A stretch of DNA of 64,000 nucleotides from Patescibacteria group bacterium UBA3533 (GTDB lineage Bacteria; Patescibacteriota; Minisyncoccia; Phycocordibacterales; Phycocordibacteraceae). Shown here piece after piece: positions 8,086 to 20,899 of this stretch. The DNA lies in the NCBI GenBank assembly GCA_002376865.1, contig DFOU01000011.1, positions 16,969 through 80,968 on the forward strand. Reading direction: 5' to 3'. The notes under the pieces are model-generated. The model did no database searches, was not told the origin of the DNA, and worked only from the letters and a program-made list of their open reading frames with translations. Position 1 is the stretch's first letter. Each line of letters opens with the position of its first letter. The position numbers and the translations under genes were made by a program.

Positions 8086-8116
8086 GCCGGCGGATTAGTT
8101 TCCGCCGGCTTTTTTT
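8086..8116 (+). terminator. intrinsic terminator (gccggcgg / ccgccggc stem plus T7)
   Basis: Perfect 8-bp GC stem followed by ttttttt. The stop codon of the convergent thermonuclease gene lies in its loop. Confidence 0.7.
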
Positions 8117-8874
8117 ATTCCTTTGTCTGCTGTCTGCCAAATGTTATTACACGCTGCACTTCTCTCGTATCCTGCTTCTAGCGCCTCTTCTTCAGTACAG
8201 AAATACTGCTCTCCTTTTCTTGGGTCTATCTTTACCCGCTTATAGTTAGGGCATCCTGGGAGGAAATAGTCTTTGGTATAACTCTTAGTTATATTTCCTT
8301 TAATTACACACTCCTTGGAGAAAGGATCGGCATCTTGCTCCCCCACCCTTGTTTCTTCTTGTATAGGGCAGCTATTCCAGAGTCCTACGTTATCTTCTTT
8401 TGCTTCTCGCTCATCTGCTTGCAGTTGACTTAAGTATGTTCTATTTGGTTGTACGTATACTTCTTTTGCATACCCCTTCTCTACCAGCATGCTGTTTACA
8501 AATAGATTGTCCTTCTCTGGGTCTTCTTCGTGTATGAAAACGTAGCGCAATAGCCTATCAAAGCTATCTTGTGCGGTTTGGTCCTTCTGCAAGAGTATTT
8601 CCTTTCCAAGGAGTGTCTTGGTTAGGTATTCCTTTGCTTCTTTCCCGTAGCAGGAGTTTAGCTCTGGTGCATCAATGTTTAAGAGTCTGATGCGGATGTT
8701 GTTTTCGATGATTATAGTGTCACCATCTACTACCTCTTCTACAAGGTGTGGTCTTTGTTCAAAGTTTGCACCATATACCTCATATGTTTTGTATACCTCG
8801 TACCCTCCGTATCCTCCTGCGGCTGCTACAAAGGCAAGTACTGCCATGATTACCTTGTGCGGGAGGGGTTTCAT
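8095..8874 (-). CDS. secreted thermonuclease (SNase-like) with Cys-rich C-terminal extension
   Basis: N-terminal signal/TM segment. DGDTIIIENNIRIRLLNIDAPE...YGKEAKEYL...RLLRYVF...NSMLVEKGYAKE matches the staphylococcal-nuclease fold motifs. Confidence 0.8.
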   Translation of the reverse strand: MKPLPHKVIMAVLAFVAAAGGYGGYEVYKTYEVYGANFEQRPHLVEEVVDGDTIIIENNIRIRLLNIDAPELNSCYGKEAKEYLTKTLLGKEILLQKDQTAQDSFDRLLRYVFIHEEDPEKDNLFVNSMLVEKGYAKEVYVQPNRTYLSQLQADEREAKEDNVGLWNSCPIQEETRVGEQDADPFSKECVIKGNITKSYTKDYFLPGCPNYKRVKIDPRKGEQYFCTEEEALEAGYERSAACNNIWQTADKGIKKAGGN

Positions 8875-8898
8875 TAGATTTAGTGTAGCAGGGTTTTG

Positions 8899-9444
8899 CT
8901 ATTTAAAAGATACTGGAGTGAGTTTTGTTTTTTTAAAATCTTTATCTGCAGTAATAATTTTTTTTAATCCATCGTTTTCCATAACTGAAAGATGGAATGC
9001 ATCTCCTGGAGCAAGTCCATAATTTTTTATTCCTTCCAAGGCCCTTGGAAGATGCAGATGATCTAATTTAGAAAAACTAATATAGCCACCGCTTTGTAGT
9101 GAGTTTACTGTGACATCAATATTTCCACTGATTGCTTTATAAGAAAAGTTTATTTTGTTAAAAACTAACTTGAGAGTAATTCCAGAAAAACTTAATTTTT
9201 CTAAAATGGTATTTATTTTCCTAATTCCTGGCCTATTCCCCCTAATTCTATTTTGAACTTTTCTGACAACACCCAGAAGTTCATAGATACAAAGCATTGA
9301 GGTTTTCATATTGCACTCGTTGACCAAAAGCCATACAAGCATTTTCTGAGCCTTTACATGATCAGGGTGTTCTGGTATAGAAATTCCGGCAAGAAAATTT
9401 GCATCTAGAAAAACACTCTCTTTTTGTGCAATTTTTACTGCCAT
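8899..9444 (-). CDS. PIN-domain protein (VapC-like nuclease, enlarged 181 aa)
   Basis: N-terminal VFLDANFL (first acidic motif), internal IYELLG Glu, and C-terminal GDAFHLSVMENDGLKKIITADKDF (third and fourth PIN motifs). AT-rich. Confidence 0.6.
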   Translation of the reverse strand: MAVKIAQKESVFLDANFLAGISIPEHPDHVKAQKMLVWLLVNECNMKTSMLCIYELLGVVRKVQNRIRGNRPGIRKINTILEKLSFSGITLKLVFNKINFSYKAISGNIDVTVNSLQSGGYISFSKLDHLHLPRALEGIKNYGLAPGDAFHLSVMENDGLKKIITADKDFKKTKLTPVSFK

Positions 9445-9725
9445 TAAATTTTCCCATCAAAATGATGTGGTTTTGCGCCAGCCAAGCTTACTGTGCCAAC
9501 AACATTACTTAAAAAATGTTTCTGTTTTTCATTAAGCTGCTTAAACAACTGATCTCCAACATTTTTCTTAATTAAATTAAGCCTTCTTTCACTTTCTTGG
9601 TCAAAGATTTCAAAAAATAAAGGGGTTGCACCTGAGCTTGTGGAGTAACGTGACGATGAGATAAAAAGCTCACTTGGAACTGAAGCGTAAATATTTGCGT
9701 CATCTAAAGGGAAGTATGGAATCAT
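9444..9725 (-). CDS. hypothetical protein (93 aa); possible partner of the PIN protein
   Basis: Stop overlaps the downstream PIN gene start (ATGA at 9444). No recognisable motif. Confidence 0.4.
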   Translation of the reverse strand: MIPYFPLDDANIYASVPSELFISSSRYSTSSGATPLFFEIFDQESERRLNLIKKNVGDQLFKQLNEKQKHFLSNVVGTVSLAGAKPHHFDGKI

Positions 9726-9728
9726 AAA

Positions 9729-10337
9729 TTAAATTTTATCAATTAAATCCTTAAACTTTAGAAATTCTTTAACGAAGTCTTTTTTTATAGATTCTATATC
9801 TGAAAGTCCGGAAGGGTAATGCACATTCAAATGCGCGAGATATTTTTTGTCAGCACTCACCGGCTTTATTTCAAACATATATTTTTTTTCTTCCTCTATG
9901 AAATTAATGCTGACACCCGCTTGAGACACATGAACTAAATTAGCAATTTTTTTACTAATTAAATCTTTAACCTCAAAAGAGTCTTCTGAATTCACCAGGG
10001 CATCAAAATTAAATCCGTAAGATGTTACTTTTTTTTGAGAGATGATACCTTTTTCGAAAAAAAGATTTAGATCTTCCATTATTGATGTTTCGGTTGGATC
10101 TTGAGAGCCCTTATCATTTATTAAAACCCTAACATTTTCAAAAACAAAATCTTTTTTTAAATCTGGAACAATAATAACTTTAATCCCCGGCCCCTCTATT
10201 GTTGAAGAGTTTAAATCTTTTTGCTTATTACTTTCTTTTAGAAGATCAACCACGGTTGATCCTGAGATAACCTTTTGTTCAAGCGGCTCAGAAAACAAAG
10301 TTGTAATATTTAGCCCTTTGATACTTTCTATTCTCAT
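9729..10337 (-). CDS. hypothetical protein (202 aa), first gene of the AT-rich PIN operon
   Basis: 3-nt gap to the next gene; very AT-rich (about 33-35% GC); no recognisable motif. Confidence 0.45.
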   Translation of the reverse strand: MRIESIKGLNITTLFSEPLEQKVISGSTVVDLLKESNKQKDLNSSTIEGPGIKVIIVPDLKKDFVFENVRVLINDKGSQDPTETSIMEDLNLFFEKGIISQKKVTSYGFNFDALVNSEDSFEVKDLISKKIANLVHVSQAGVSINFIEEEKKYMFEIKPVSADKKYLAHLNVHYPSGLSDIESIKKDFVKEFLKFKDLIDKI

Positions 10338-10370: not shown

Positions 10371-10886
10371 CTACAACCCCGCAGCCAAAATTCCCTTATT
10401 CACCTCAAGTATCAAATCTTCTGTTTTGTCTACGTTAGCCTCCTTGTCCGCATACCCAAGTGCAACAAGTATTTCAAAAGCAATCTCTGCCTCTTCCCTT
10501 TCAAAATCTATATCTTCCTCTCCTTTTACAAGCGCCTCTAACCTTTCATACACTTTTTGCTGCACCTCGTGCTCGGGTAACAATCTCCCCAGAAGACCAA
10601 GTATGTTTGCATATACTTTTTTACGCTCTCCTGTAAGGGTAAAGGAGTATTGCCGTACTTGATCCATTCCTTTAAGGCGCCAATTATATCTTCCACGAAT
10701 AAGAGAATAGATACTGTGTGTCCCAGGCTGCGTGCATGCAGCAAACGTAGCGCCCGCCCGCTTTGCAGCTTGTGCAATTACACGAATCTTTCCCAAGTCT
10801 TGGGTAAAGATAATTGCCTCTACAGAGTCTTCCTTATTGGGACGAGCTTTTAGTACGAATCCTGGAGTTGTGTACGTCTCATGCAT
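10371..10886 (-). CDS. recO: DNA repair protein RecO-like
   Basis: N-terminal OB-fold-like segment (GFVLKARPNKEDSVEAIIFTQDLGKIRVIAQAAKR); 171 aa, reduced form. Confidence 0.5.
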   Translation of the reverse strand: MHETYTTPGFVLKARPNKEDSVEAIIFTQDLGKIRVIAQAAKRAGATFAACTQPGTHSIYSLIRGRYNWRLKGMDQVRQYSFTLTGERKKVYANILGLLGRLLPEHEVQQKVYERLEALVKGEEDIDFEREEAEIAFEILVALGYADKEANVDKTEDLILEVNKGILAAGL

Positions 10887-13800
10887 GAACGACGTTTATC
10901 GTAAGTTGCTTCTCGCCAAGATCTACTTCTATTCCTCCAGGAAGCTCTTGTACGCGCTGGATAGTTTTAACTCCAGCAACACTCATAATTTCACTCTTGT
11001 ATGCATCTAGGAATGCTGCATTTCCTGCAATAGTTAGGATTGCAAAATCGTGTGGAGAGAAGTCCGCCTTCTTTCGTGCATCTTGTACCGCTCGTATAAA
11101 TTCTCGAACCATTCCCTTCTCCTTTAGCTCTGGAGTTAGTTCTGTATCAAGTTTAAGCTCTTCTCCATCGAGAATAATGTTCTCTACGTTTACTTCTTCC
11201 TTGATAAGAGCTTGGTATTCCTCTGTTAGAGAGATTCCTTTCTTTAGAGTGAGCGCATTGAGTGGCTGCCGTACTTTGTGCCCTGCAGTTTGTCGCATCA
11301 TAAGTGCATCACTTACGATAGTTCGTACTTCTTTCATAGTATCGAGTACTTCTTGGTCTATCTTCCCTGCTTCTGGCCAATCACATAGGTGTACACTCTC
11401 AGCATCACTCTCTTCTTTTAGTTCTCTATATAGATACTCTGCATAAAATGGCGTAGCAGGTGCCATTACCTTTGCAGTCTCCATAAGTACAAAGCGAAGT
11501 GTATGCATTGCATGCTCTGCATCTTCTCCTCCCTCTTTAATACGATCTCGAGAGCGCCTGACATACCATGTTGAAAGATCATCAAGGAAATCGAGAAGTG
11601 GGCGTGTGGCTTTATCAAATTCATATCCTTCATATCCTTTTGTTGTCTGATCTACAAGCTCATTTAGTCTTGAGATAATCCATGTATCAAGTACGTGCTT
11701 TGTTCCCTCTTTTCTCTGTACAGTGTCCTTATATAGATTGTAGAAAGAAAGTACGTTGTGCAGTCTTCCTACCACTTTTGAAGATGTTTCTTTTACACCT
11801 GCTTCTGAGAAAGAGAAGTCTTCTGCTCGTGATACAGGAGATGCGAGCATGTAGTACCGCACAGCATCTGCTCCATATTTATTGATTATCTCCATAGGAT
11901 CAGGATAGTTCTTGAGTTTCTTACTCATCTTCTGCCCATCCTCTGCAAGTACCGTTCCATTTACCACTACGTTTTCAAATGGTGCTTTTCCGAAGAGCCC
12001 TACGCCAAGAACGAGTAGTGAGTAGAACCACCCTCGTGTCTGATCGAGTCCCTCTGCAATATATTGTGCAGGATATCCCTTTGATTTACTAAAGAGTCCT
12101 CCCTTTGGATTAAATACATCTAAGTTGCTGTATGGATAGTTTTGCTGCGCATATGGCATTGATCCAGACTCAAACCAACAATCAAACACATCGAGGATCC
12201 GTGTGTACTCTTCTCCATCCTTCTCAAGCTTTATCTCATCAATATATGGACGATGGAAATCTAGCTCATAGTTTGCATTGTGTGGCAGCGCCACAAATGG
12301 AAGGTCCACTCGTGCTCCAGGCTCTGCGTGTGTCTTATCATGAATTTCCATTGAACGAGCACTGTTTGCTCCCTCAACAACTGCAGGAAGAATCTCCATT
12401 CCAATTCCATGCGTAACGATAAGAATCTTCTCATCTTGAAGCTGCGCTTCCTTCTCGTACATAAATTCTCCAAAGCGCTTCTTCACATCAAGGAAGCTCT
12501 CCCCTCCTGGGATAGTTGTCTCGTACGTGAAATCTTTCTCAATGAAATCAAAGTAATCTTTGATTGGCTTTCCTTGGAAATCTCCAAATCCAAGCTCGGC
12601 AAGTCGCTCATCAAAGACAACTTCGTCCTTTGAAAGGCCAATTTCTTCTGCAATTATTTCTGCTGTCTGCTTTGTTCGAAGGAATGGAGAAGCAAAGATT
12701 TTTGTAACTCCTTCTACTTTTAGCTTTGCGCCAGTCTCTTTTGCTAGCTTTACCCCTCTCTCAGTTAGCTTATACGGATCATCTTTATGTGCACTTACTA
12801 CATTTTTTACATTGTGCTCTCCCTCAGCGTGGCGCATTGCCATGTACGTGTTTCCTGACTTCTTTACGTGCGCCCGAAGATCCTCAACTCCACCCAATAC
12901 AATCTGATCTCCTTCTTCGTTCTCCCAGACAGGAAGAGGCGCTCCCCAGAAACGACTTCTTGAGATTGACCAGTCCTTTCCTCCCTTAAGCCAGTTACCG
13001 AATCGCTTAGATCCAACCTCTTTTGGCACCCAATGCACTTTGTCATTCTCCTTTACGAGTTGGTTCGTTATCTTTGGAGCGTTCACAAACCATGAGTCCA
13101 TCGCATAGTTTAGAAGCGGCTCATCTGTTCGCCATGAGTGTGGGTAGCTATGCTCAATCTTCTCTTTTTTGAAGAGTTTTCCAGCGTGTGCGAGCGCTTT
13201 GATGATTTCAATGTCAGTTGCTTGATGATTATCCTTTGGCTTTGCATCCATTCCGGCAAAGTCCCCTACTTCTTTTACAAACTTTCCACTCTTATTTACG
13301 TGGTGCACGATTGGCACACCTTCCTTTTGTGCAAGCTCAAGATCTTCTGCACCAAATGCTGGCGCTAGGTGTACTGCTCCTGTTCCAGAGTCTTCAGTTA
13401 CATAGTCTGCTGCATAGATTTTCCATGCATTCTCCTTCCCTTCTATCTCTTCGTTGAGGTAGTAGTTAAATGGAGGTTCGTATTCTTTCCCAACAAGATC
13501 CTTTCCTTTCATCTCTTCAAGGACTTCGTACTCCATTCCTTCAAAGAGTGAGAGTTTTTCTTTTGAAACAATGTACGTACCGTCTAGCTTTTCATCCCCT
13601 GTTACCTTTACCTTTGTATATACAAAATCAGGATTTACAGCAGCTGCCATGTTTCCAGGGAGTGTCCATGGTGTTGTGGTCCAGACAAGGAGTGAGGCGT
13701 TCATTCCTTTAATAGGTAGCGGTACTGTTACCGCAAAGTCTGTAATATCTTTATACCCTTGTGCTACTTCAATATTTGAAAGCTCTGTTCCCAGAAGTGG

Positions 13801-14337
13801 ACTTAGGTGGAGTGATTTAAATCCTTTATAGATAAGACCTTTATCATAGAGTGTTTTAAATGCCCACCACACACTCTCGGTATATGTTGGATCCATGGTT
13901 CGATAGTCATTGTCCATATCTACGAATCGTCCGATTCGCGGAATGAACTTCATCCAGTCATCTCTATACTGAAGCACTACCTTCTTTGCCTTCTCTACAA
14001 AGTTCTCAATTCCTACCTCTTCGATTATTTCCTGCTTAGTTGAAACACCAAACTCCTTCTCAACTTGTGCTTCAAGAGGAAGTCCATGACAGTCCCATCC
14101 CCAGCGACGCGGTACCGTATACCCCTTCATTGTCTTATACCGAGGAACAACATCCTTTAGAGTGCTCGCTAGTACGTGCCCATAGTGCGGGAGTCCTGTG
14201 GCAAATGGAGGTCCATCATAAAAAGTGAACGTCCCTTTGGGAGATTTTTTCTCTACAGATTTTTCAAAAATGCGCTCATTCTTCCAAAATTCCAGCATTT
14301 CTTCCTCTCGCTTCGAGAAGTCACTTTTGTCGCTCAT
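10879..14337 (-). CDS. ileS: isoleucine--tRNA ligase (type 2) with an inserted histidine-phosphatase (PGAM-like) domain
   Basis: PHYGHVL (HIGH), WTTTPWTLPGN (editing domain), KMSKKLKNYP (KMSKS), FGNWLKGGKDWSISRSRFWGAPLPVW. Unexpected segment of about 200 aa at nt 12259-12879 containing MRHAEGEHN, SPFLRTKQTAEII, GGESFLD..KRF and VTHGIGMEIL. Start taken at MSDKSDFSKREEEMLEFW. Confidence 0.9.
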   Translation of the reverse strand: MSDKSDFSKREEEMLEFWKNERIFEKSVEKKSPKGTFTFYDGPPFATGLPHYGHVLASTLKDVVPRYKTMKGYTVPRRWGWDCHGLPLEAQVEKEFGVSTKQEIIEEVGIENFVEKAKKVVLQYRDDWMKFIPRIGRFVDMDNDYRTMDPTYTESVWWAFKTLYDKGLIYKGFKSLHLSPLLGTELSNIEVAQGYKDITDFAVTVPLPIKGMNASLLVWTTTPWTLPGNMAAAVNPDFVYTKVKVTGDEKLDGTYIVSKEKLSLFEGMEYEVLEEMKGKDLVGKEYEPPFNYYLNEEIEGKENAWKIYAADYVTEDSGTGAVHLAPAFGAEDLELAQKEGVPIVHHVNKSGKFVKEVGDFAGMDAKPKDNHQATDIEIIKALAHAGKLFKKEKIEHSYPHSWRTDEPLLNYAMDSWFVNAPKITNQLVKENDKVHWVPKEVGSKRFGNWLKGGKDWSISRSRFWGAPLPVWENEEGDQIVLGGVEDLRAHVKKSGNTYMAMRHAEGEHNVKNVVSAHKDDPYKLTERGVKLAKETGAKLKVEGVTKIFASPFLRTKQTAEIIAEEIGLSKDEVVFDERLAELGFGDFQGKPIKDYFDFIEKDFTYETTIPGGESFLDVKKRFGEFMYEKEAQLQDEKILIVTHGIGMEILPAVVEGANSARSMEIHDKTHAEPGARVDLPFVALPHNANYELDFHRPYIDEIKLEKDGEEYTRILDVFDCWFESGSMPYAQQNYPYSNLDVFNPKGGLFSKSKGYPAQYIAEGLDQTRGWFYSLLVLGVGLFGKAPFENVVVNGTVLAEDGQKMSKKLKNYPDPMEIINKYGADAVRYYMLASPVSRAEDFSFSEAGVKETSSKVVGRLHNVLSFYNLYKDTVQRKEGTKHVLDTWIISRLNELVDQTTKGYEGYEFDKATRPLLDFLDDLSTWYVRRSRDRIKEGGEDAEHAMHTLRFVLMETAKVMAPATPFYAEYLYRELKEESDAESVHLCDWPEAGKIDQEVLDTMKEVRTIVSDALMMRQTAGHKVRQPLNALTLKKGISLTEEYQALIKEEVNVENIILDGEELKLDTELTPELKEKGMVREFIRAVQDARKKADFSPHDFAILTIAGNAAFLDAYKSEIMSVAGVKTIQRVQELPGGIEVDLGEKQLTINVVHA

Positions 14338-14363
14338 ATAAAGGATATAGTAGCAGGATGTAT

Positions 14364-14394
14364 AAAAAGTGAAAGACCGCACAATTGTGCGGTC
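14364..14394 (-). terminator. intrinsic terminator after the 14409-14660 gene
   Basis: gaccgcaca / tgtgcggtc stem followed by tttcacttttta on the minus strand. Confidence 0.6.
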
Positions 14395-14408
14395 CTCCCC
14401 AAAGATCA

Positions 14409-14660
14409 TCAAGCGGCTTGCGAAAGCCAGACATGGCCGGTGCCATTTTGCTGACGCCTCAGTCCACGTGCATTTAAAAATGCATCTTGAATGGAGACAT
14501 CGACCTGGCCTGGATCGGTGATGGTAATAACCGAACCTTCCATGGGGATCAATCCCTCCTTTTCACAGTGAATTTCAACAGGTCCCTTTTTCAAGAGCTT
14601 GTTGATGTCGCGCGCGAGCGTGCGCTGCGCACTTGGCCCATATGGACGACATTTCGACAA
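14409..14660 (-). CDS. small hypothetical protein (83 aa), GC-rich
   Basis: TTG start preceded by AAGGGAGGAGTG, its own terminator, about 50% GC. No recognised domain. Confidence 0.45.
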   Translation of the reverse strand: MSKCRPYGPSAQRTLARDINKLLKKGPVEIHCEKEGLIPMEGSVITITDPGQVDVSIQDAFLNARGLRRQQNGTGHVWLSQAA

Positions 14661-14710
14661 TTTTCACTCCTCCCTTAAATGAACAGAAAGAAGAATATAG
14701 CATGATTTTA

Positions 14711-14743
14711 CAAAAGGAAAAGGTCGAGTATTAACACTCGACC
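14711..14743 (-). terminator. intrinsic terminator overlapping the 3' end of the 14731-14940 gene
   Basis: ggtcgagt / actcgacc stem with the stop codon in the loop, then ttttccttttg on the minus strand. Confidence 0.6.
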
Positions 14744-14940
14744 CCTCCCCGACGAATGAAGTGTGCGCGAAGCTGTTGGATTTCTACATCACGGGCAGAA
14801 TCCCCTGGCGGCGGAATAAATATCCCTGGAGCTTTAGTGCCTGTCTTTCTAACACGCACGTTGCCTACGTTGCCATTTAAATACTCAACACACTCTTCGA
14901 TTGTCGGGAAGTCCAGTTCAGGAATTTCTTTACTGGACAT
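14731..14940 (-). CDS. small hypothetical protein (69 aa), GC-rich, monocistronic
   Basis: AAAGGAGGAGAGA then ATG; extended -10 (TGcTATAAT) about 33 nt upstream; own terminator. Confidence 0.45.
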   Translation of the reverse strand: MSSKEIPELDFPTIEECVEYLNGNVGNVRVRKTGTKAPGIFIPPPGDSARDVEIQQLRAHFIRRGGVEC

Positions 14941-14969
14941 TCTCTCCTCCTTTGTAGAACCTCTAAAAT

Positions 14970-14985
14970 TAAATTATAGCACCCT
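14970..14985 (-). promoter_or_regulatory. extended -10 promoter element (TGcTATAAT) for the 69-aa gene
   Basis: Minus-strand gtgctataat immediately downstream of the argS stop. Confidence 0.45.
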
Positions 14986-16615
14986 ACATCTTCTCTGGAG
15001 CCTCTATTCCCAGAAGCCATAGTCCGTTTGTCATCGTTAGGACAAATGCCTCAATAAGCAGAAGTTTGTATCCCTCATACTCTCCTCCAAGGATCTTCTC
15101 TTTTGCATAGAAACTATTAAATTCAGAAGCAAGTTCTGTTAGGAATCCTGTTACGTGGTGTGGCTCATACTTTTCTTGTGCACGAGCAACAACCTCTGGG
15201 AATCTATACAGAATCTTCTCAAGATCATATGGCTGCTCTGGAGCAACTGCATCTGCATCATCTTTTGAAGAGTCAGCAAGGATTTTCTTTGCTCGTACGA
15301 GAGCGTACTGCAGATACGGCCCTGAATCTCCCTCGGTAGAAAGTGAGTTGTTTACATCAAAGACAATGTCTCCTCCTGGCTGCTGCCGCAGAATACTGTA
15401 CTTAATTGCAGCTACTGCTACTTTCCGTGCAGTTTCTTCATCAGAATTCTGCTCTTTTACTTTCTCTACAAGATTATCGATAAGAGACTTCGCCGTTACG
15501 ATATCTCCTGTTCTTGAGCTCATCTTTCCTTCAGAGAGCTTCATCAAACCATTTGAAAGGTGCGTGATCTTTTCTGCCTGCTCTGGATGAATCTCAGAGA
15601 GAGCTTCCTTGATTACCTTGAAGTACTCTGCCTGCTCTTTTCCAGTTAGGATGATCGATTGATTGTGCTCCCACCACTCGTCCTTGATAGTTTCAAGCCC
15701 AAGCTCCTTTGCTTCATACGTTGGTGTTCCCTGCTTTGTTTTAAATACTCGAGTATGTAGCCCCTTCTTTTCTCCCTCATATACGATAGCTCCATCACTC
15801 TCTACGAAAACTCCTTTTTTAATTCCTTCCTCTACCACCTTCATTCCAACAGGCGCTGACTCACTTTCGAAAATAAATCGATCTAATTTTATATCTAAAG
15901 TATCAAGAACTTCTTGCACTCCTTCTATTGAAATCTTCCTTCCTTCCTCATGCTCTTTCATGAGATCTTTGTCTTCTCCTGCATAGATAGCTTTATTGAG
16001 TGTATCTATCTCTTCTTTTGCAGATTCATTCTCTTCGTATTCTTTTGCACCAAGAGCATATGCTTCTCCAATTACAGCAGGAGAGAGCTCTTTCCCAAGT
16101 TTTCGCAGTCCATAGATGGCCTTTGCAGCATGTGGCCCCACATCTCCTCCATATGATTCCTTTTTAACTTCTGCTCCAGAGAATTGGAGAAGCCGTGCAA
16201 TAGATTCTCCAATAGTTGCCCCCATAAGGTGCCCAATGTGAAGCTGCTTAAATGCATTAGCATTTACATACTCCATGATCACTTTGTGATCTACATTATT
16301 AGTATTGCTTCCCCACAGCCTACCGAGTGATCCAATTACCTTAAGAGATCCCGTGAAGAACTCACGAGAGAGTTTGAAGTTAATAAACCCAGGACCTGCA
16401 ATAGATACTTCCTCCACAAATGGAAGGTCAATCTTTTTTACAATCTCTTCTGCAAGTTCCTTTGGATTTACTCCCCGCTCTTTAGCAAGAGTCATGGCTA
16501 TGTTTGTTGCATAGTCTCCATGACTTAGATCTTGAGGGTGCTCAAGATGTACTGAAGAAGCCTCCACATCTGCTGCGGCAGCTACTGCTTTTTGTAGTTC
16601 TTTTACGAGATCCAT
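14984..16615 (-). CDS. argS: arginine--tRNA ligase
   Basis: 543 aa, class I HIGH region (ANAFKQLHIGHLMGATIGESIARLL); ArgRS-like N- and C-terminal architecture. Confidence 0.8.
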   Translation of the reverse strand: MDLVKELQKAVAAAADVEASSVHLEHPQDLSHGDYATNIAMTLAKERGVNPKELAEEIVKKIDLPFVEEVSIAGPGFINFKLSREFFTGSLKVIGSLGRLWGSNTNNVDHKVIMEYVNANAFKQLHIGHLMGATIGESIARLLQFSGAEVKKESYGGDVGPHAAKAIYGLRKLGKELSPAVIGEAYALGAKEYEENESAKEEIDTLNKAIYAGEDKDLMKEHEEGRKISIEGVQEVLDTLDIKLDRFIFESESAPVGMKVVEEGIKKGVFVESDGAIVYEGEKKGLHTRVFKTKQGTPTYEAKELGLETIKDEWWEHNQSIILTGKEQAEYFKVIKEALSEIHPEQAEKITHLSNGLMKLSEGKMSSRTGDIVTAKSLIDNLVEKVKEQNSDEETARKVAVAAIKYSILRQQPGGDIVFDVNNSLSTEGDSGPYLQYALVRAKKILADSSKDDADAVAPEQPYDLEKILYRFPEVVARAQEKYEPHHVTGFLTELASEFNSFYAKEKILGGEYEGYKLLLIEAFVLTMTNGLWLLGIEAPEKM

Positions 16616-16624
16616 GTATGCACT

Positions 16625-17875
16625 CTATACAAAAATCTGCGGAATGGGAAACTTTTCACAAAGCTCTTCCACCTTTTTCCGCACCTCCCCTGCTTTGCTT
16701 GTGTCTTTTAGTACTTCAACCATCCACTGCGCTACCAACTTACTTTCAGCTTCTTTAAACTTTCTTGTTGTTATAGCTGGTGTTCCAAACCTGATTCCAG
16801 ATGGATCAAGTGGTGGACGAGTATCGTCCGCAATAGCATTTTTATTAAGCGTAATACCTGCCTCATCAAGCGCATGCTCAGCCTCTGCTCCTGTAATGCC
16901 AAATGAAGTATGTACATCAAGGAGTATGAGGTGATTGCTTGTCCCTCCTGTTAGCATTCTTGCTCCAGCTTCCTTAAACACTTCCTCCATTGCCTTTGCA
17001 TTTTTAATTACCTGCTCTGCATATTCTTTAAACTGTGGGGTTAGTGCTTCTCCAAAGCACACTGCTTTTGCTGCAATCTGATGCATATGAGGACCACCCT
17101 GGAATCCTGGGAACATTGCCTTATCTACTTTCTTTGCAATTTCTCCCTTCTCTCTTATGAGGATCATTCCACCTCGAGGTCCTCGAAGAGTCTTATGTGT
17201 CGTTGTAGTCATTACATCAAATCCATAATCAAATGGATTCTCGTGTGCTCCTCCTGCGATAAGCCCTGCAATATGCGCCACGTCTGCTACCGTGTACGCA
17301 CCAACTTCATCTGCAATCTCTTTAAACTTTTTCCAATCAAGTTCTCGTGGATATGCTGAGAATCCTGCAAGGATAATTTTTGGCTTCTCTTTTAGAGCTA
17401 CTTCTCGAAGCTCGTCATAATCAATCTCCCCTGTCTCTACATCCTTCATCTTGTACCGTACAAAATTAAAGATCTTTGCAATTGCTGTAACAGGGTGCCC
17501 ATGTGTTAGATGCCCTCCATGACTTAGGTCCATTCCGAGCACCGTGTCTCCTGGCTCAAGCAAAGCAAAGTAGAGTCCAATGTTTGCATTTGCTCCTCCC
17601 AAGGGCTGTACGTTTGCGTGCTCACACTTGAAGAGCTTCTTTGCTCGCTCAATAGCAAGCAATTCTACTTTGTCCGTAAATTCTTGTCCGCCATAGTATC
17701 GCTTTCCTGGATACCCTTCTGAGTATTTATTGGTTAGTACTGAAGACATCGTCTCTCGCACTGCAGCAGATACATAGTTCTCAGACGGAATGAGTTCAAG
17801 ACCTTTATCCTGTCGCTCCTCTTCCCCTTCGAGAATCTCTAGCACTTCTTTGTCCTGTTTTTTTAGATATTCCAT
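16625..17875 (-). CDS. glyA: serine hydroxymethyltransferase
   Basis: LELIPSENYVSAAVRETMSSVLTNKYSEGYPGKRYYGG and the PLP-lysine region TTTTHKTLRGPRGG. Confidence 0.95.
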   Translation of the reverse strand: MEYLKKQDKEVLEILEGEEERQDKGLELIPSENYVSAAVRETMSSVLTNKYSEGYPGKRYYGGQEFTDKVELLAIERAKKLFKCEHANVQPLGGANANIGLYFALLEPGDTVLGMDLSHGGHLTHGHPVTAIAKIFNFVRYKMKDVETGEIDYDELREVALKEKPKIILAGFSAYPRELDWKKFKEIADEVGAYTVADVAHIAGLIAGGAHENPFDYGFDVMTTTTHKTLRGPRGGMILIREKGEIAKKVDKAMFPGFQGGPHMHQIAAKAVCFGEALTPQFKEYAEQVIKNAKAMEEVFKEAGARMLTGGTSNHLILLDVHTSFGITGAEAEHALDEAGITLNKNAIADDTRPPLDPSGIRFGTPAITTRKFKEAESKLVAQWMVEVLKDTSKAGEVRKKVEELCEKFPIPQIFV

Positions 17876-17876
17876 A

Positions 17877-18278
17877 TTATTTTTTACATTTACATCCCTT
17901 TAAATTTGCTTGGTATAAAATTGCGTTTGGATCTTTTACGAACTTCCCATCAACCAACTCTCCTGTACGTGAATTAATTTCTTTGCATACCTCTTCCATT
18001 ATTGCCGCAGGCTCATATCCCTGCTTCTTGAGTGCCCCGATGGCAAAAACAATAATGTCAGCCCACGCATCTGCAATTTCTTCTTCTGGTGCCTCTGTGT
18101 CGCCAACAATTTCTTCTGCATAGTGAGCGGCGCGCTCTCGTGCAGTTACACTGTCATACTTCCCAGTGCTTTCTAGAAGCTCTTCAAGAATAAATGAGGT
18201 TTCTTTTTTGTGATTGAATCCTTTCTCGAGAAGCCCTCGCTCTTTATTCCAATCAATTATGTTTTCAAATACATTCAT
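17877..18278 (-). CDS. MazG-like nucleoside triphosphate pyrophosphohydrolase (all-alpha NTP-PPase)
   Basis: ELLESTGKYD...YAEEIVGDTEAPEEEIADAWADIIVFAIG with spaced acidic residues typical of the MazG/dimeric dUTPase fold. Adjacent to dut. Confidence 0.5.
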   Translation of the reverse strand: MNVFENIIDWNKERGLLEKGFNHKKETSFILEELLESTGKYDSVTARERAAHYAEEIVGDTEAPEEEIADAWADIIVFAIGALKKQGYEPAAIMEEVCKEINSRTGELVDGKFVKDPNAILYQANLKGCKCKK

Positions 18279-18281
18279 AAG

Positions 18282-18713
18282 TTATTTTCCAGTACTTCCA
18301 AAGCCCCCTTCTCCTCTCTCTGTCTCATCCAAAGATTCAACTTCCTCAAAATCAGCGTGCGCAACTTCTTGCAAAAGCATTTGCGCCACCTTATCTCCCA
18401 CATCAAAGGTGTGCGCCTCTGTTCCGTGATTGATGATACCCACTTTTATCTCTCCCCTATACCCAGCATCAATAACTCCCCCGAGCACTTTAAGTCCTCG
18501 CTTTATTGCATTTCCGCTCTTATCCCAGATAAGGCCCACATACCCTTCAGGAATCGCCATAGCAAGTCCTGTTGGCACAGCCTTATATTCTCCTGGACTG
18601 ATAGTTACACCTTCTGTGCTACAAAGATCCATTCCAGCATCATCACTGTGAGCAAACTCTGGCACTTTGGCTGCCTCATGGAGTTTCTGTACTTGTATCT
18701 TGAGCTTCTTCAT
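18282..18713 (-). CDS. dut: dUTP diphosphatase
   Basis: AGMDLCS...SGNAIKRGLKVLGGVIDAGYRGEIKVGIIN...GDKVAQMLL, the classic trimeric dUTPase motifs. Confidence 0.9.
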   Translation of the reverse strand: MKKLKIQVQKLHEAAKVPEFAHSDDAGMDLCSTEGVTISPGEYKAVPTGLAMAIPEGYVGLIWDKSGNAIKRGLKVLGGVIDAGYRGEIKVGIINHGTEAHTFDVGDKVAQMLLQEVAHADFEEVESLDETERGEGGFGSTGK

Positions 18714-18748
18714 ATCTGGATGTTCTGCTGTTTAGTTTCTCTATTCTA

Positions 18749-19441
18749 TCACGCTCTATTTTTTAGGATATTTTGCACCAGAGCCCATAATTCCTCATGA
18801 ATATCTTCCCGTGTTCGAGGCTTTCCACGCTGCGCACACGCAATTCTGTACCAAGCATTTAATTTCTTAACTATTGAAAGTGCTCTCTTTCGAGAATTTT
18901 CTTGGTATTCAAGACTCTCTTCCGTTGCGTCTTTCTTTCCTTTTGTATATTCCTTTCCTTTCTTTGCTTCTTTTAGGAGTTCTGCGGCAACTTTAACTGG
19001 CATGTCTAAATAGATAATGGCATCGGGGCGCGGAATTTTAAAAACACCATGTTCCATCTCATCAAGCCATGTAAGGAATGTTTTTAGTTTCTTTGCGTCT
19101 TGGATTTTCCCTCCTTGATGTATTTGGTTTGCACTTACATACCGATCAAGAATCACGGTATATCCTTTTTTCATCCAGTCTTCTATTTTCTTTTTTGATT
19201 CAAACCTATCTGCAGCATACAAAACCGATGCAATGTGCGGATCAGTCTTTAGGAAATCTCCATGGTCTCCAACAAGACACTCTCCTATTAGCTTCCCAAA
19301 GAAATTATTTTCGTAGTGAGGGAAATCCAGAGTACGTACAGGAATCTTTTCTTTTTTTAGACGTTTTAGAAGAAGTTCCGTTTGCGTTGCCTTTCCACTT
19401 CCATCTCCGCCATCCAGTACTATCAGTTTTCCGCGCTTCAT
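18749..19441 (-). CDS. tmk: thymidylate kinase
   Basis: P-loop GKLIVLDGGDGSGKATQ; about 230 aa. Confidence 0.85.
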   Translation of the reverse strand: MKRGKLIVLDGGDGSGKATQTELLLKRLKKEKIPVRTLDFPHYENNFFGKLIGECLVGDHGDFLKTDPHIASVLYAADRFESKKKIEDWMKKGYTVILDRYVSANQIHQGGKIQDAKKLKTFLTWLDEMEHGVFKIPRPDAIIYLDMPVKVAAELLKEAKKGKEYTKGKKDATEESLEYQENSRKRALSIVKKLNAWYRIACAQRGKPRTREDIHEELWALVQNILKNRA

Positions 19442-19498
19442 ATTGGAGCAATTGTACCTTATTTTGTTAATTTTTGAGCGTGGTAAAATTCTCTCTAT

Positions 19499-20344
19499 AT
19501 GAAGAAATATCTGAACCTGTTAGACGACGTATTAGAAAATGGAGTAGACCGAGAAGGACGAAATGGAACAACCCGTGCAGTCTTTGCACGCCAAGCCCGC
19601 TTCAATCTAGAAGATGGCTTCCCTGCAGTTACTACAAAGAAACTTGCCTGGAAGGCAGTAGTGTCTGAGCTCCTTTGGTTTATCGAAGGTTCAGGAGACG
19701 ATAATCGTCTAAAAGAAATTCTAGGGAAAGATAAAACCATCTGGAGCGCTAATGCGAATGCTGACTACTGGAAACCAAAGGCAAAATTCGATGGAGACCT
19801 TGGACGAGTGTACGGCGTGCAATGGAGATCTTGGCAAAAGCCCGATGGAAGTACAGTAGATCAATTGGCTGAGGTTATCGAGCGCATTAAAAATGATCCC
19901 TATGATCGAAGATTAATCGTAAGCGCTTGGAATCCAGGAGAGCTAGACCTTATGGCACTTCCTCCTTGTCATATGTTCTTCCAGTTTTTTGTAACTCCAG
20001 ATGAGTCTGGGAAGCCTGCAAAACTGTCACTGCATATGGTGCAACGAAGTTGTGATCTGTTCCTTGGAGTTCCATTTAACATTGCATCGTATGCCCTCCT
20101 TCTTTCTATGGTGGCGCAAGTAACGGGACTTAAACCATTTGAGCTTGTTATGAGCTTTAATGACCTACATATATATGGGGATCATATGGATGCAGTAAAG
20201 GAGCAGTTGAAGCGAGAGCCTATGGACCTCCCTACTCTTAAGCTTAATCCTGATGTTAAAAATATTGATGATTTCACAATGGATGATATTGAACTAGAAG
20301 GCTACAAATCGCACGACACCATAAAGGCAAAGATGGCGGTGTAG
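19499..20344 (+). CDS. thyA: thymidylate synthase (ThyA type)
   Basis: LLWFIEGSGD, RVYGVQWRSW, IVSAWNPGELDLMALPPCHMFFQFFV (catalytic Cys). Confidence 0.95.
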   Translation: MKKYLNLLDDVLENGVDREGRNGTTRAVFARQARFNLEDGFPAVTTKKLAWKAVVSELLWFIEGSGDDNRLKEILGKDKTIWSANANADYWKPKAKFDGDLGRVYGVQWRSWQKPDGSTVDQLAEVIERIKNDPYDRRLIVSAWNPGELDLMALPPCHMFFQFFVTPDESGKPAKLSLHMVQRSCDLFLGVPFNIASYALLLSMVAQVTGLKPFELVMSFNDLHIYGDHMDAVKEQLKREPMDLPTLKLNPDVKNIDDFTMDDIELEGYKSHDTIKAKMAV

Positions 20345-20368
20345 AATATAAAAGGAAAGGAGACGATT

Positions 20369-20899
20369 ATGGCTATCAAAATCATTGCAGCAATTGGAGA
20401 TAAGCGTCTCCTGGGAGTTGTTAAAGACGGAAAGCATGGTCTTCCGTGGCGAATTCCTGAAGACTCAAAACATTTTAGCCACAGCACAAATGGTGCGGTA
20501 GTTATTATGGGAAGATCTACATGGGAATCTTTGCCAGATAGGTTTAGGCCTCTTCCGGATCGAACAAACTTTGTTCTTACAAGAAATCCTGATTATAGAG
20601 CAGAGGGCGCTAGAGTTTTCCCTGGTCTACATGAAGCACTTGAGGTTGCAGAAACTTTAAGTGACAAGACCATTTGGATTATGGGAGGCGCTAGCATCTA
20701 CGAGCAGGCACTCCCTATCGTCGATGAACTCTCTCTTACAATTGTAGAGGAAGAGCTCCTTCCTCCACCAATGGGAGGAGAGGAGCGCATTCTCTTCCCA
20801 GAGTACGAGCATCTTTTTGAATGCATAGACTCAACTCCTCGCATGCGCTCAGACAATAAAAATATTCCATACCGCTTTCAAACTTGGAAGCGAAAATAA
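20369..20899 (+). CDS. folA: dihydrofolate reductase
   Basis: IKIIAAIGDKRLLG...GLPWRIPEDSKHFSHSTNGAVVIMGRSTWESLP; AAGGAAAGGAG RBS. Confidence 0.9.
   Translation: MAIKIIAAIGDKRLLGVVKDGKHGLPWRIPEDSKHFSHSTNGAVVIMGRSTWESLPDRFRPLPDRTNFVLTRNPDYRAEGARVFPGLHEALEVAETLSDKTIWIMGGASIYEQALPIVDELSLTIVEEELLPPPMGGEERILFPEYEHLFECIDSTPRMRSDNKNIPYRFQTWKRK

Follow-up and report, generated by a model that had tools for sequence, protein, structure and literature searches.

Two small genes and their signals between argS and ileS

The DNA considered here is a stretch of 64,000 nucleotides, hereafter the window, from Patescibacteria group bacterium UBA3533 (GenBank assembly GCA_002376865.1, contig DFOU01000011.1, positions 16,969 to 80,968 of the forward strand), and our subject is a pair of small open reading frames (ORFs) located in it between the genes for arginyl- and isoleucyl-tRNA synthetase. 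The order on the minus strand is argS (16615..14984), ORF1 (14940..14731), ORF2 (14660..14409) and ileS (14337..10879), with the identities of ArgRS and IleRS supported by Pfam. ORF1 encodes a soluble protein of 69 amino acids from an ATG start and represents a new family of 64-71 residues that is found in every lineage sampled, whereas ORF2 encodes a soluble protein of 83 amino acids from a TTG start and represents a new family of 77-102 residues, borne on an optional cassette that is exchanged between genomes. A preliminary description, made from the nucleotide sequence, had placed both ORFs at these coordinates and on this strand, correctly as we find, and had taken them for GC-rich, autonomous transcription units, inserted into a housekeeping context, whose products match no recognisable family.

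Sequences of the extended -10 type (TGnTATAAT-like, at a suitable distance and conserved among relatives) lie ahead of ORF1, ORF2 and ileS, and are predicted from sequence to be promoters, here called P1, P2 and P3. The first, TGCTATAAT (P1, 14981..14973, minus strand), lies 2 nucleotides past the argS stop codon TAG (14986..14984) and retains TATAAT in all lineages. It is followed in the 5'-untranslated region of ORF1 by an invariant motif, TTTAGAGGTTC (14967..14957, minus strand), which occurs once in the window and is the same in every lineage although the ORF1 protein drops to 31-36% identity; the motif may be a regulatory or processing site of the argS-ORF1 transcript. A Shine-Dalgarno site, AGGAGG (14951..14946, minus strand), is positioned 5 nucleotides upstream of the ATG. 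Downstream, the intrinsic terminator T1 (14750..14707, minus strand) consists of a hairpin (14750..14715) and a T-tract, with a folding free energy (dG) of -24 kcal/mol and a z-score of -4.4, none of 200 shuffled sequences being equally stable, and across 11 lineages 7 of its 10 stem pairs show compensatory double changes. The ORF1 stop codon always falls inside the T1 loop (window 14731-14750; same site in L001-L020), so that the 5' arm of the hairpin, which covaries with the 3' arm, supplies the codons for the final 4-5 residues.

ORF2 has a corresponding set of signals, including an extended -10 that the preliminary description, which had recognised the one of ORF1, left unmentioned. This element, TGCTATATT (P2, 14702..14694, minus strand), is present in the form TG(C/G)TATnTT in every ORF2-bearing lineage and is gone wherever ORF2 is gone. 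The Shine-Dalgarno site GGGAGG (14674..14669, minus strand) lies 8 nucleotides before the TTG, which follows GGAGG in all ten ORF2 lineages, and since protein-level conservation extends over the residues from the TTG to the first ATG, the TTG is the true start. The terminator of ORF2, T2 (14400..14360, minus strand), is a hairpin (14400..14368) with a T-tract, a dG of -21 kcal/mol and a z-score of -6.0, in which 4 of 12 pairs show compensatory double changes across lineages. Both T1 and T2 thus combine a GC-rich hairpin, a T-tract and an evolutionarily maintained stem, and the ribosome-binding sites and rho-independent terminators initially attributed to each ORF are borne out. The claim of autonomy holds only in part: each gene does have signals of its own, but there is no terminator in the argS-ORF1 gap, T1 being the first downstream of argS, so that transcription from argS probably continues into ORF1 and T1 would also end argS transcripts. 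Nor is the promoter-RBS-ORF-terminator layout as unusual as had been thought, since strong hairpin-plus-T-tract terminators occur across the window at about twice the shuffle expectation and the arrangement is therefore ordinary for this genome.

The ileS gene itself starts at ATG 14337, which is conserved among relatives and gives a protein of 1152 amino acids, in agreement with the gene calls of the related locus L001; the list of open reading frames carries the frame on to a TTG at 14412. Its promoter-like element TGCTACTAT (P3, 14355..14347, minus strand) ends 9 nucleotides upstream of the ATG and belongs to a block of 29 nucleotides, CTTTCACTTTTTATACATCCTGCTACTAT, that is invariant or differs at few positions among lineages and is found as a single copy in the window. 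This block is nearly unchanged even among lineages whose IleRS proteins differ by 20%. As P3 lies so close to the start codon and no Shine-Dalgarno site precedes ileS (window 14335-14375), the ileS mRNA, to judge by this spacing, is probably leaderless or nearly so.

Coding status, distribution and turnover of the two families

The pattern of substitution indicates that ORF1 and ORF2 are real protein genes under purifying selection. Within allele classes the substitutions are mostly synonymous, with ratios of nonsynonymous to synonymous rates (dN/dS) of 0.11-0.26 for ORF2, 0.11-0.23 for ORF1 and 0.07-0.26 over the estimates as a whole, and of the six frames only the sense one is open in all loci. 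The antisense ORFs, which had been put forward as possible true genes, are closed in relatives and not conserved. Three close homologues of ORF1 share 74-88% identity with it, and a profile search that exhaustively covered 1.8 billion representative proteins recovered six distant homologues of 64-71 residues (E 7e-20 to 8e-4), in addition to one match to a repeat protein, which is spurious. Conservation therefore lies at the protein level, as these distant relatives and the dN/dS values attest, and is not confined to the nucleotides as the preliminary description had allowed. The homologues of ORF2 have 77-102 residues. All homologues are confined to marine Patescibacteria metagenome contigs (UBA2103 and relatives), a DNA-pattern scan of metagenomes for ORF1 loci yielded three loci, and the order argS-ORF1-(ORF2)-ileS is seen in every locus with enough flanking DNA (L001-L022).

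The statement that neither protein belongs to a recognisable family withstood searches of Pfam, NCBIfam, PHROGs and PADLOC, which gave no match to ORF1 or ORF2, and Pfam gave none to any other family member either; PDB sequence profiles returned chance matches only. The window holds no paralogue of either gene, and the two are not paralogues of each other (hhalign probability 0.6%), despite similar-looking topologies. Public catalogues already list both proteins, without names, among the predictions made from Tara mesopelagic samples, and in the literature and databases we found no family, structure or paper that describes them.

The elevation in GC content noted at the outset is real but modest: 48.6% in ORF1 and 51.6% in ORF2 against 42.5% in the window, a level attained by 3-7% of windows of the same size. 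The two genes exceed their locus by 2-14 points in every lineage, including those in which the ArgRS C-terminus is just 72-82% identical. The raised GC is therefore no sign of recent foreign insertion, and by this comparison it is evidently a property of both families rather than a trace of recent import.

The turnover of the two genes stands out when the window is compared with its near-identical relative L001. The SHMT, ArgRS, IleRS and RecO proteins are 97-100% identical between the two, with a proportion of synonymous differences (pS) of 0.25-0.31, while ORF1 is 85-87% identical with a pS of 0.33 and a dN about 5-fold above that of the neighbouring genes, and ORF2 is 37% identical with a saturated pS of 0.76. 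Nucleotide identity, otherwise 0.84-0.96, falls to 0.32-0.50 across 14680..14428 only, that is, from the ORF2 Shine-Dalgarno site to the stop codon, and P2 and T2, which lie outside this segment, stay conserved. As the drop is confined to this segment, the ORF2 coding sequence has been replaced and has a history unlike that of its surroundings. The allele of L001 is closer to that of L014 (63% identity) than to that of the window (38%). Across a greater distance, between L014 and the window, the ArgRS C-terminus is 93% identical and ORF1 only 36%, and on these alignments the ORF1 slot evidently shows the same replacement behaviour as ORF2, at greater depth. Allele classes of ORF1 and ORF2 are found in differing combinations and therefore assort independently.

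Gene content varies as well, with ORF2 present, absent or duplicated-with-addition among lineages. It is missing from L015 and L020, where T1 abuts the pre-ileS block CTTTCACTTTTTA(A/T)ACATCCTGCTACTAT. L017, L018 and L022 carry a third ORF, of 93 amino acids (L017 6484-6765; L018 1331-1612), which overlaps the end of ORF2, by 17 nucleotides in one lineage; the L017 protein has no Pfam, PADLOC or PDB match, and the ORF is a third orphan gene of the locus. T1 and T2 are alike (GGCCGC...GCGGCC followed by TTTC), and the comparison of sequences suggests that recombination between them may add or remove the ORF2 module. No integrase, repeat or mobile element flanks either gene. The proposal of cassettes is apt for ORF2, which is present, absent or replaced, and not for ORF1, which occurs in all lineages; GC content marks neither as an insertion.

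Several features of the neighbourhood are recorded here in their own right. A second variable spot lies nearby, downstream of recO (window 8095-10337, corresponding to 10651-12204 in L001 and 6455-8120 in L011). In the window it holds a 202-residue orphan, a PIN-domain protein (8899-9444) and an SNase homologue (8095-8874), and in L001 a 270-residue protein and a Polbeta nucleotidyltransferase, though the genomes are near-identical. Upstream of argS (window 16625-20899) lie genes for SHMT, a MazG/PRA-PH-like pyrophosphohydrolase, dUTPase and thymidylate kinase, all four assigned by Pfam, and beyond the last of these ThyA and DHFR, assigned only via homology to L001; such a cluster from SHMT to DHFR can resemble phage, and here it is part of a Patescibacteria chromosome. 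The thymidylate synthase of the neighbourhood also varies, being ThyA with DHFR in L001 (1-1178) and ThyX (Pfam Thy1) in L017 (813-2183). Finally, the catalytic domain of IleRS contains a whole histidine-phosphatase domain (residues 501-660, window 12358-12837, minus strand; Pfam His_Phos_1, E 2e-28). This insert is present in the IleRS of all relatives examined (L001, L011, L015 and L017), and we found no description of a histidine-phosphatase insert in IleRS in the literature.

Properties of the proteins and the predicted fold of ORF2

Both proteins are hydrophilic, and neither has a signal peptide or a hydrophobic or membrane segment; the effector or regulatory role first suggested for them found no support in the analyses. 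Charge complementarity between the two was considered and discarded, as the isoelectric point ranges widely in both families and net charge is not conserved. ORF1 has a beta-alpha-beta-beta-alpha arrangement with an invariant Cys17 and an arginine-rich C-terminal helix; a fold search of BFVD found nothing at E <= 0.001, and the product would likewise be a small binding protein, of a fold without known match.

ORF2 is predicted to adopt the fold that ATP-grasp enzymes have in their central B (lid) domain. Matches of lower Z-score include PurT, carbamoyl-phosphate synthetase, PurD, PurK, glutathione synthetase, RimK and LysX/ArgX. By eye, a conserved His31 occupies the place where the ATP-binding Lys would sit, and a (D/E)GSV motif resembles the EGSSVG of these enzymes. 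The protein comprises this one domain and lacks the N and C domains that bear the remainder of the active site, and its neighbours, ORF1 and ileS, are not the missing halves. ATP-grasp models of Pfam do not match ORF2 or any of the nine family members even at E values of up to 10, and a sequence search of the PDB found no ATP-grasp enzyme. In Smith-Waterman alignments to the central domain of DdlB with shuffled controls, two family members gave p values of 0.004-0.015 and seven were non-significant. With only the lid, no N or C domain and His substituted for the Lys, the modelled protein is most likely a non-catalytic binding module rather than an enzyme.

Interpretation and comparison with known systems

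We propose that the argS-ileS gap holds a small flexible islet encoding two unrelated, lineage-restricted soluble proteins with perhaps an antagonistic role, a reading to which we assign a probability of roughly one half; we have high confidence in how the locus is built and evolves, and low confidence in the function. ORF2 constitutes a promoter-Shine-Dalgarno-ORF-terminator module of its own, which members of the clade acquire, lose and exchange as a whole, plausibly via homologous recombination, with the conserved promoter and the two similar terminators serving as arms. The products of ORF1 and ORF2 would be small soluble binding proteins and not enzymes, and an antagonistic or strain-specific interaction, with phage, host or competing strains, would fit them better than a housekeeping role linked to the synthetases. 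Such a role is favoured by the strong expression signals, the amino-acid change several-fold faster than in neighbouring genes, the replacement of alleles and the variation in presence, while a role in aminoacylation is disfavoured because ArgRS and IleRS are nearly invariant between genomes with different ORF2 alleles.

Several observations weigh against this proposal. No homologue of ORF1 or ORF2 with a known role was found in Pfam, NCBIfam, PHROGs, PADLOC or PDB, and searches of phage genomes (by megablast), viral contigs and, for ORF1, BFVD gave neither a relative nor a link to phage. The rapid evolution could reflect weak constraint instead of conflict. The AlphaFold2 model of ORF2 was built from an alignment of just five sequences, and only structure links ORF2 to ATP-grasp enzymes: no relation between ORF2 and Escherichia coli DdlB is detected by hhalign (probability 0.25%), and the Smith-Waterman comparisons with the DdlB central domain, summed over the ORF2 family, give p 0.10.

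The same results bear on the view that ORF2 is a free-standing lid from an enzyme of the D-Ala-D-Ala ligase type that acts in trans, supplying or blocking a lid or serving as a decoy, and that may bind the phosphate of a nucleotide via the conserved His31, Glu33 and (D/E)GSV. We consider this unlikely, for to the hhalign result and the summed p of about 0.1 are added the lack of any Pfam ATP-grasp match in the family, the His at the putative Lys position, the dispensability of ORF2 in two lineages and the finding that neither the window nor the fetched loci encode a Ddl. No more credence is due to a bolder version drawn from the same model, in which ORF2 would be the first free-standing ATP-grasp lid, a Ddl-derived modulator or decoy with arms-race alleles, directed at an ATP-grasp enzyme of the cell itself, its host or a phage, and ORF1 a protein of new fold cotranscribed with argS, the whole being a hypervariable conflict locus of a minimal kind that uses its own promoter and terminators as arms for recombination. 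Lower still is the likelihood of a toxin-antitoxin or toxin-immunity-like pair. The two genes are divided by a terminator that covaries and by a second promoter, ORF1 is found without ORF2 in L015 and L020, their allele classes are independent and do not co-vary, neither matches a toxin, antitoxin or defence family in Pfam, NCBIfam, PHROGs or PADLOC, and no toxin-like catalytic motif is apparent.

About as improbable as such a pair is the recent insertion of foreign cassettes, for which a GC content 6-9 points above the window mean and an ORF2 allele unlike that of a near-identical genome could be cited. Both families, however, are confined to the clade and occupy the same site even in deeply diverged lineages, which implies exchange among clade members and not import from outside; the GC excess is common to all lineages, and neither flanking integrases, repeats or mobile elements nor phage or viral matches were found. 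We regard it as very improbable indeed that the segment is non-coding and its ORFs accidental, whether as an ileS leader of the T-box or attenuator type or as a structured RNA of another kind. The terminator directly upstream of ileS is T-box-like in position and the raised GC would suit an RNA, but there is no Rfam match at the gathering threshold and only noise of 12-20 bits at E values of up to 10. Moreover, the substitutions are dominated by synonymous ones, the sense frame alone is open, the protein profile reaches relatives whose nucleotides are heavily diverged, and the two lineages that lack the whole ORF2 segment keep the ileS promoter block.

Patescibacteria have small genomes, and small proteins that lack annotation are believed to underlie much of their biology, their attachment to host cells and reliance on them included. 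The locus supplies two clean examples of such proteins, in clade-restricted families with purifying selection, strong signals and a turnover far above that of the adjoining essential genes. The ORF2 slot shows gene-cassette exchange in a minimal form, in which the coding segment alone is replaced between a conserved promoter and terminator, and if its likeness to the ATP-grasp lid reflects descent, then a subdomain of an enzyme has been released as an independent protein. Should neither the cassette nor the lid interpretation hold, two hypothetical proteins will at least have been better described.

Among known structures, the fold predicted for ORF2 is closest to the ATP-grasp B domain, as seen in D-alanine-D-alanine ligase, biotin carboxylase, PurT and the isolated B domain of propionyl-CoA carboxylase (PDB identifier 2cqy); unlike the ATP-grasp enzymes, ORF2 is free-standing at 83 amino acids, dispensable and hypervariable. 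With type II toxin-antitoxin systems and orphan immunity genes the locus shares small adjacent genes, fast divergence and strain-specific alleles, and it differs from type II systems in that T1 and a conserved -10 separate the genes, ORF1 stands alone in L015 and L020, and the alleles are independent. The T-box leaders that precede ileS in Firmicutes and Actinobacteria likewise place a terminator hairpin immediately before the gene, but here Rfam gives no match, the segment encodes a conserved protein, and the hairpin serves to terminate ORF2 or, in lineages without it, ORF1. Streamlined marine bacteria are known to have flexible genomic islets or hypervariable regions between core genes, and these resemble the argS-ileS gap in their housekeeping flanks, their presence/absence content and the replacement of alleles through recombination in conserved flanks. 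Unlike them, the present locus is only 0.3-0.9 kb long and holds one to three small genes, its arms would be a promoter and terminators, and it carries a constant set of two or three orphan families rather than a shifting mix of genes. Flexible islets between core genes are in themselves a known phenomenon; what is new here is the sub-kilobase size, the two orphan families, one of them ATP-grasp-lid-like by prediction, and the exchange of the coding segment alone.
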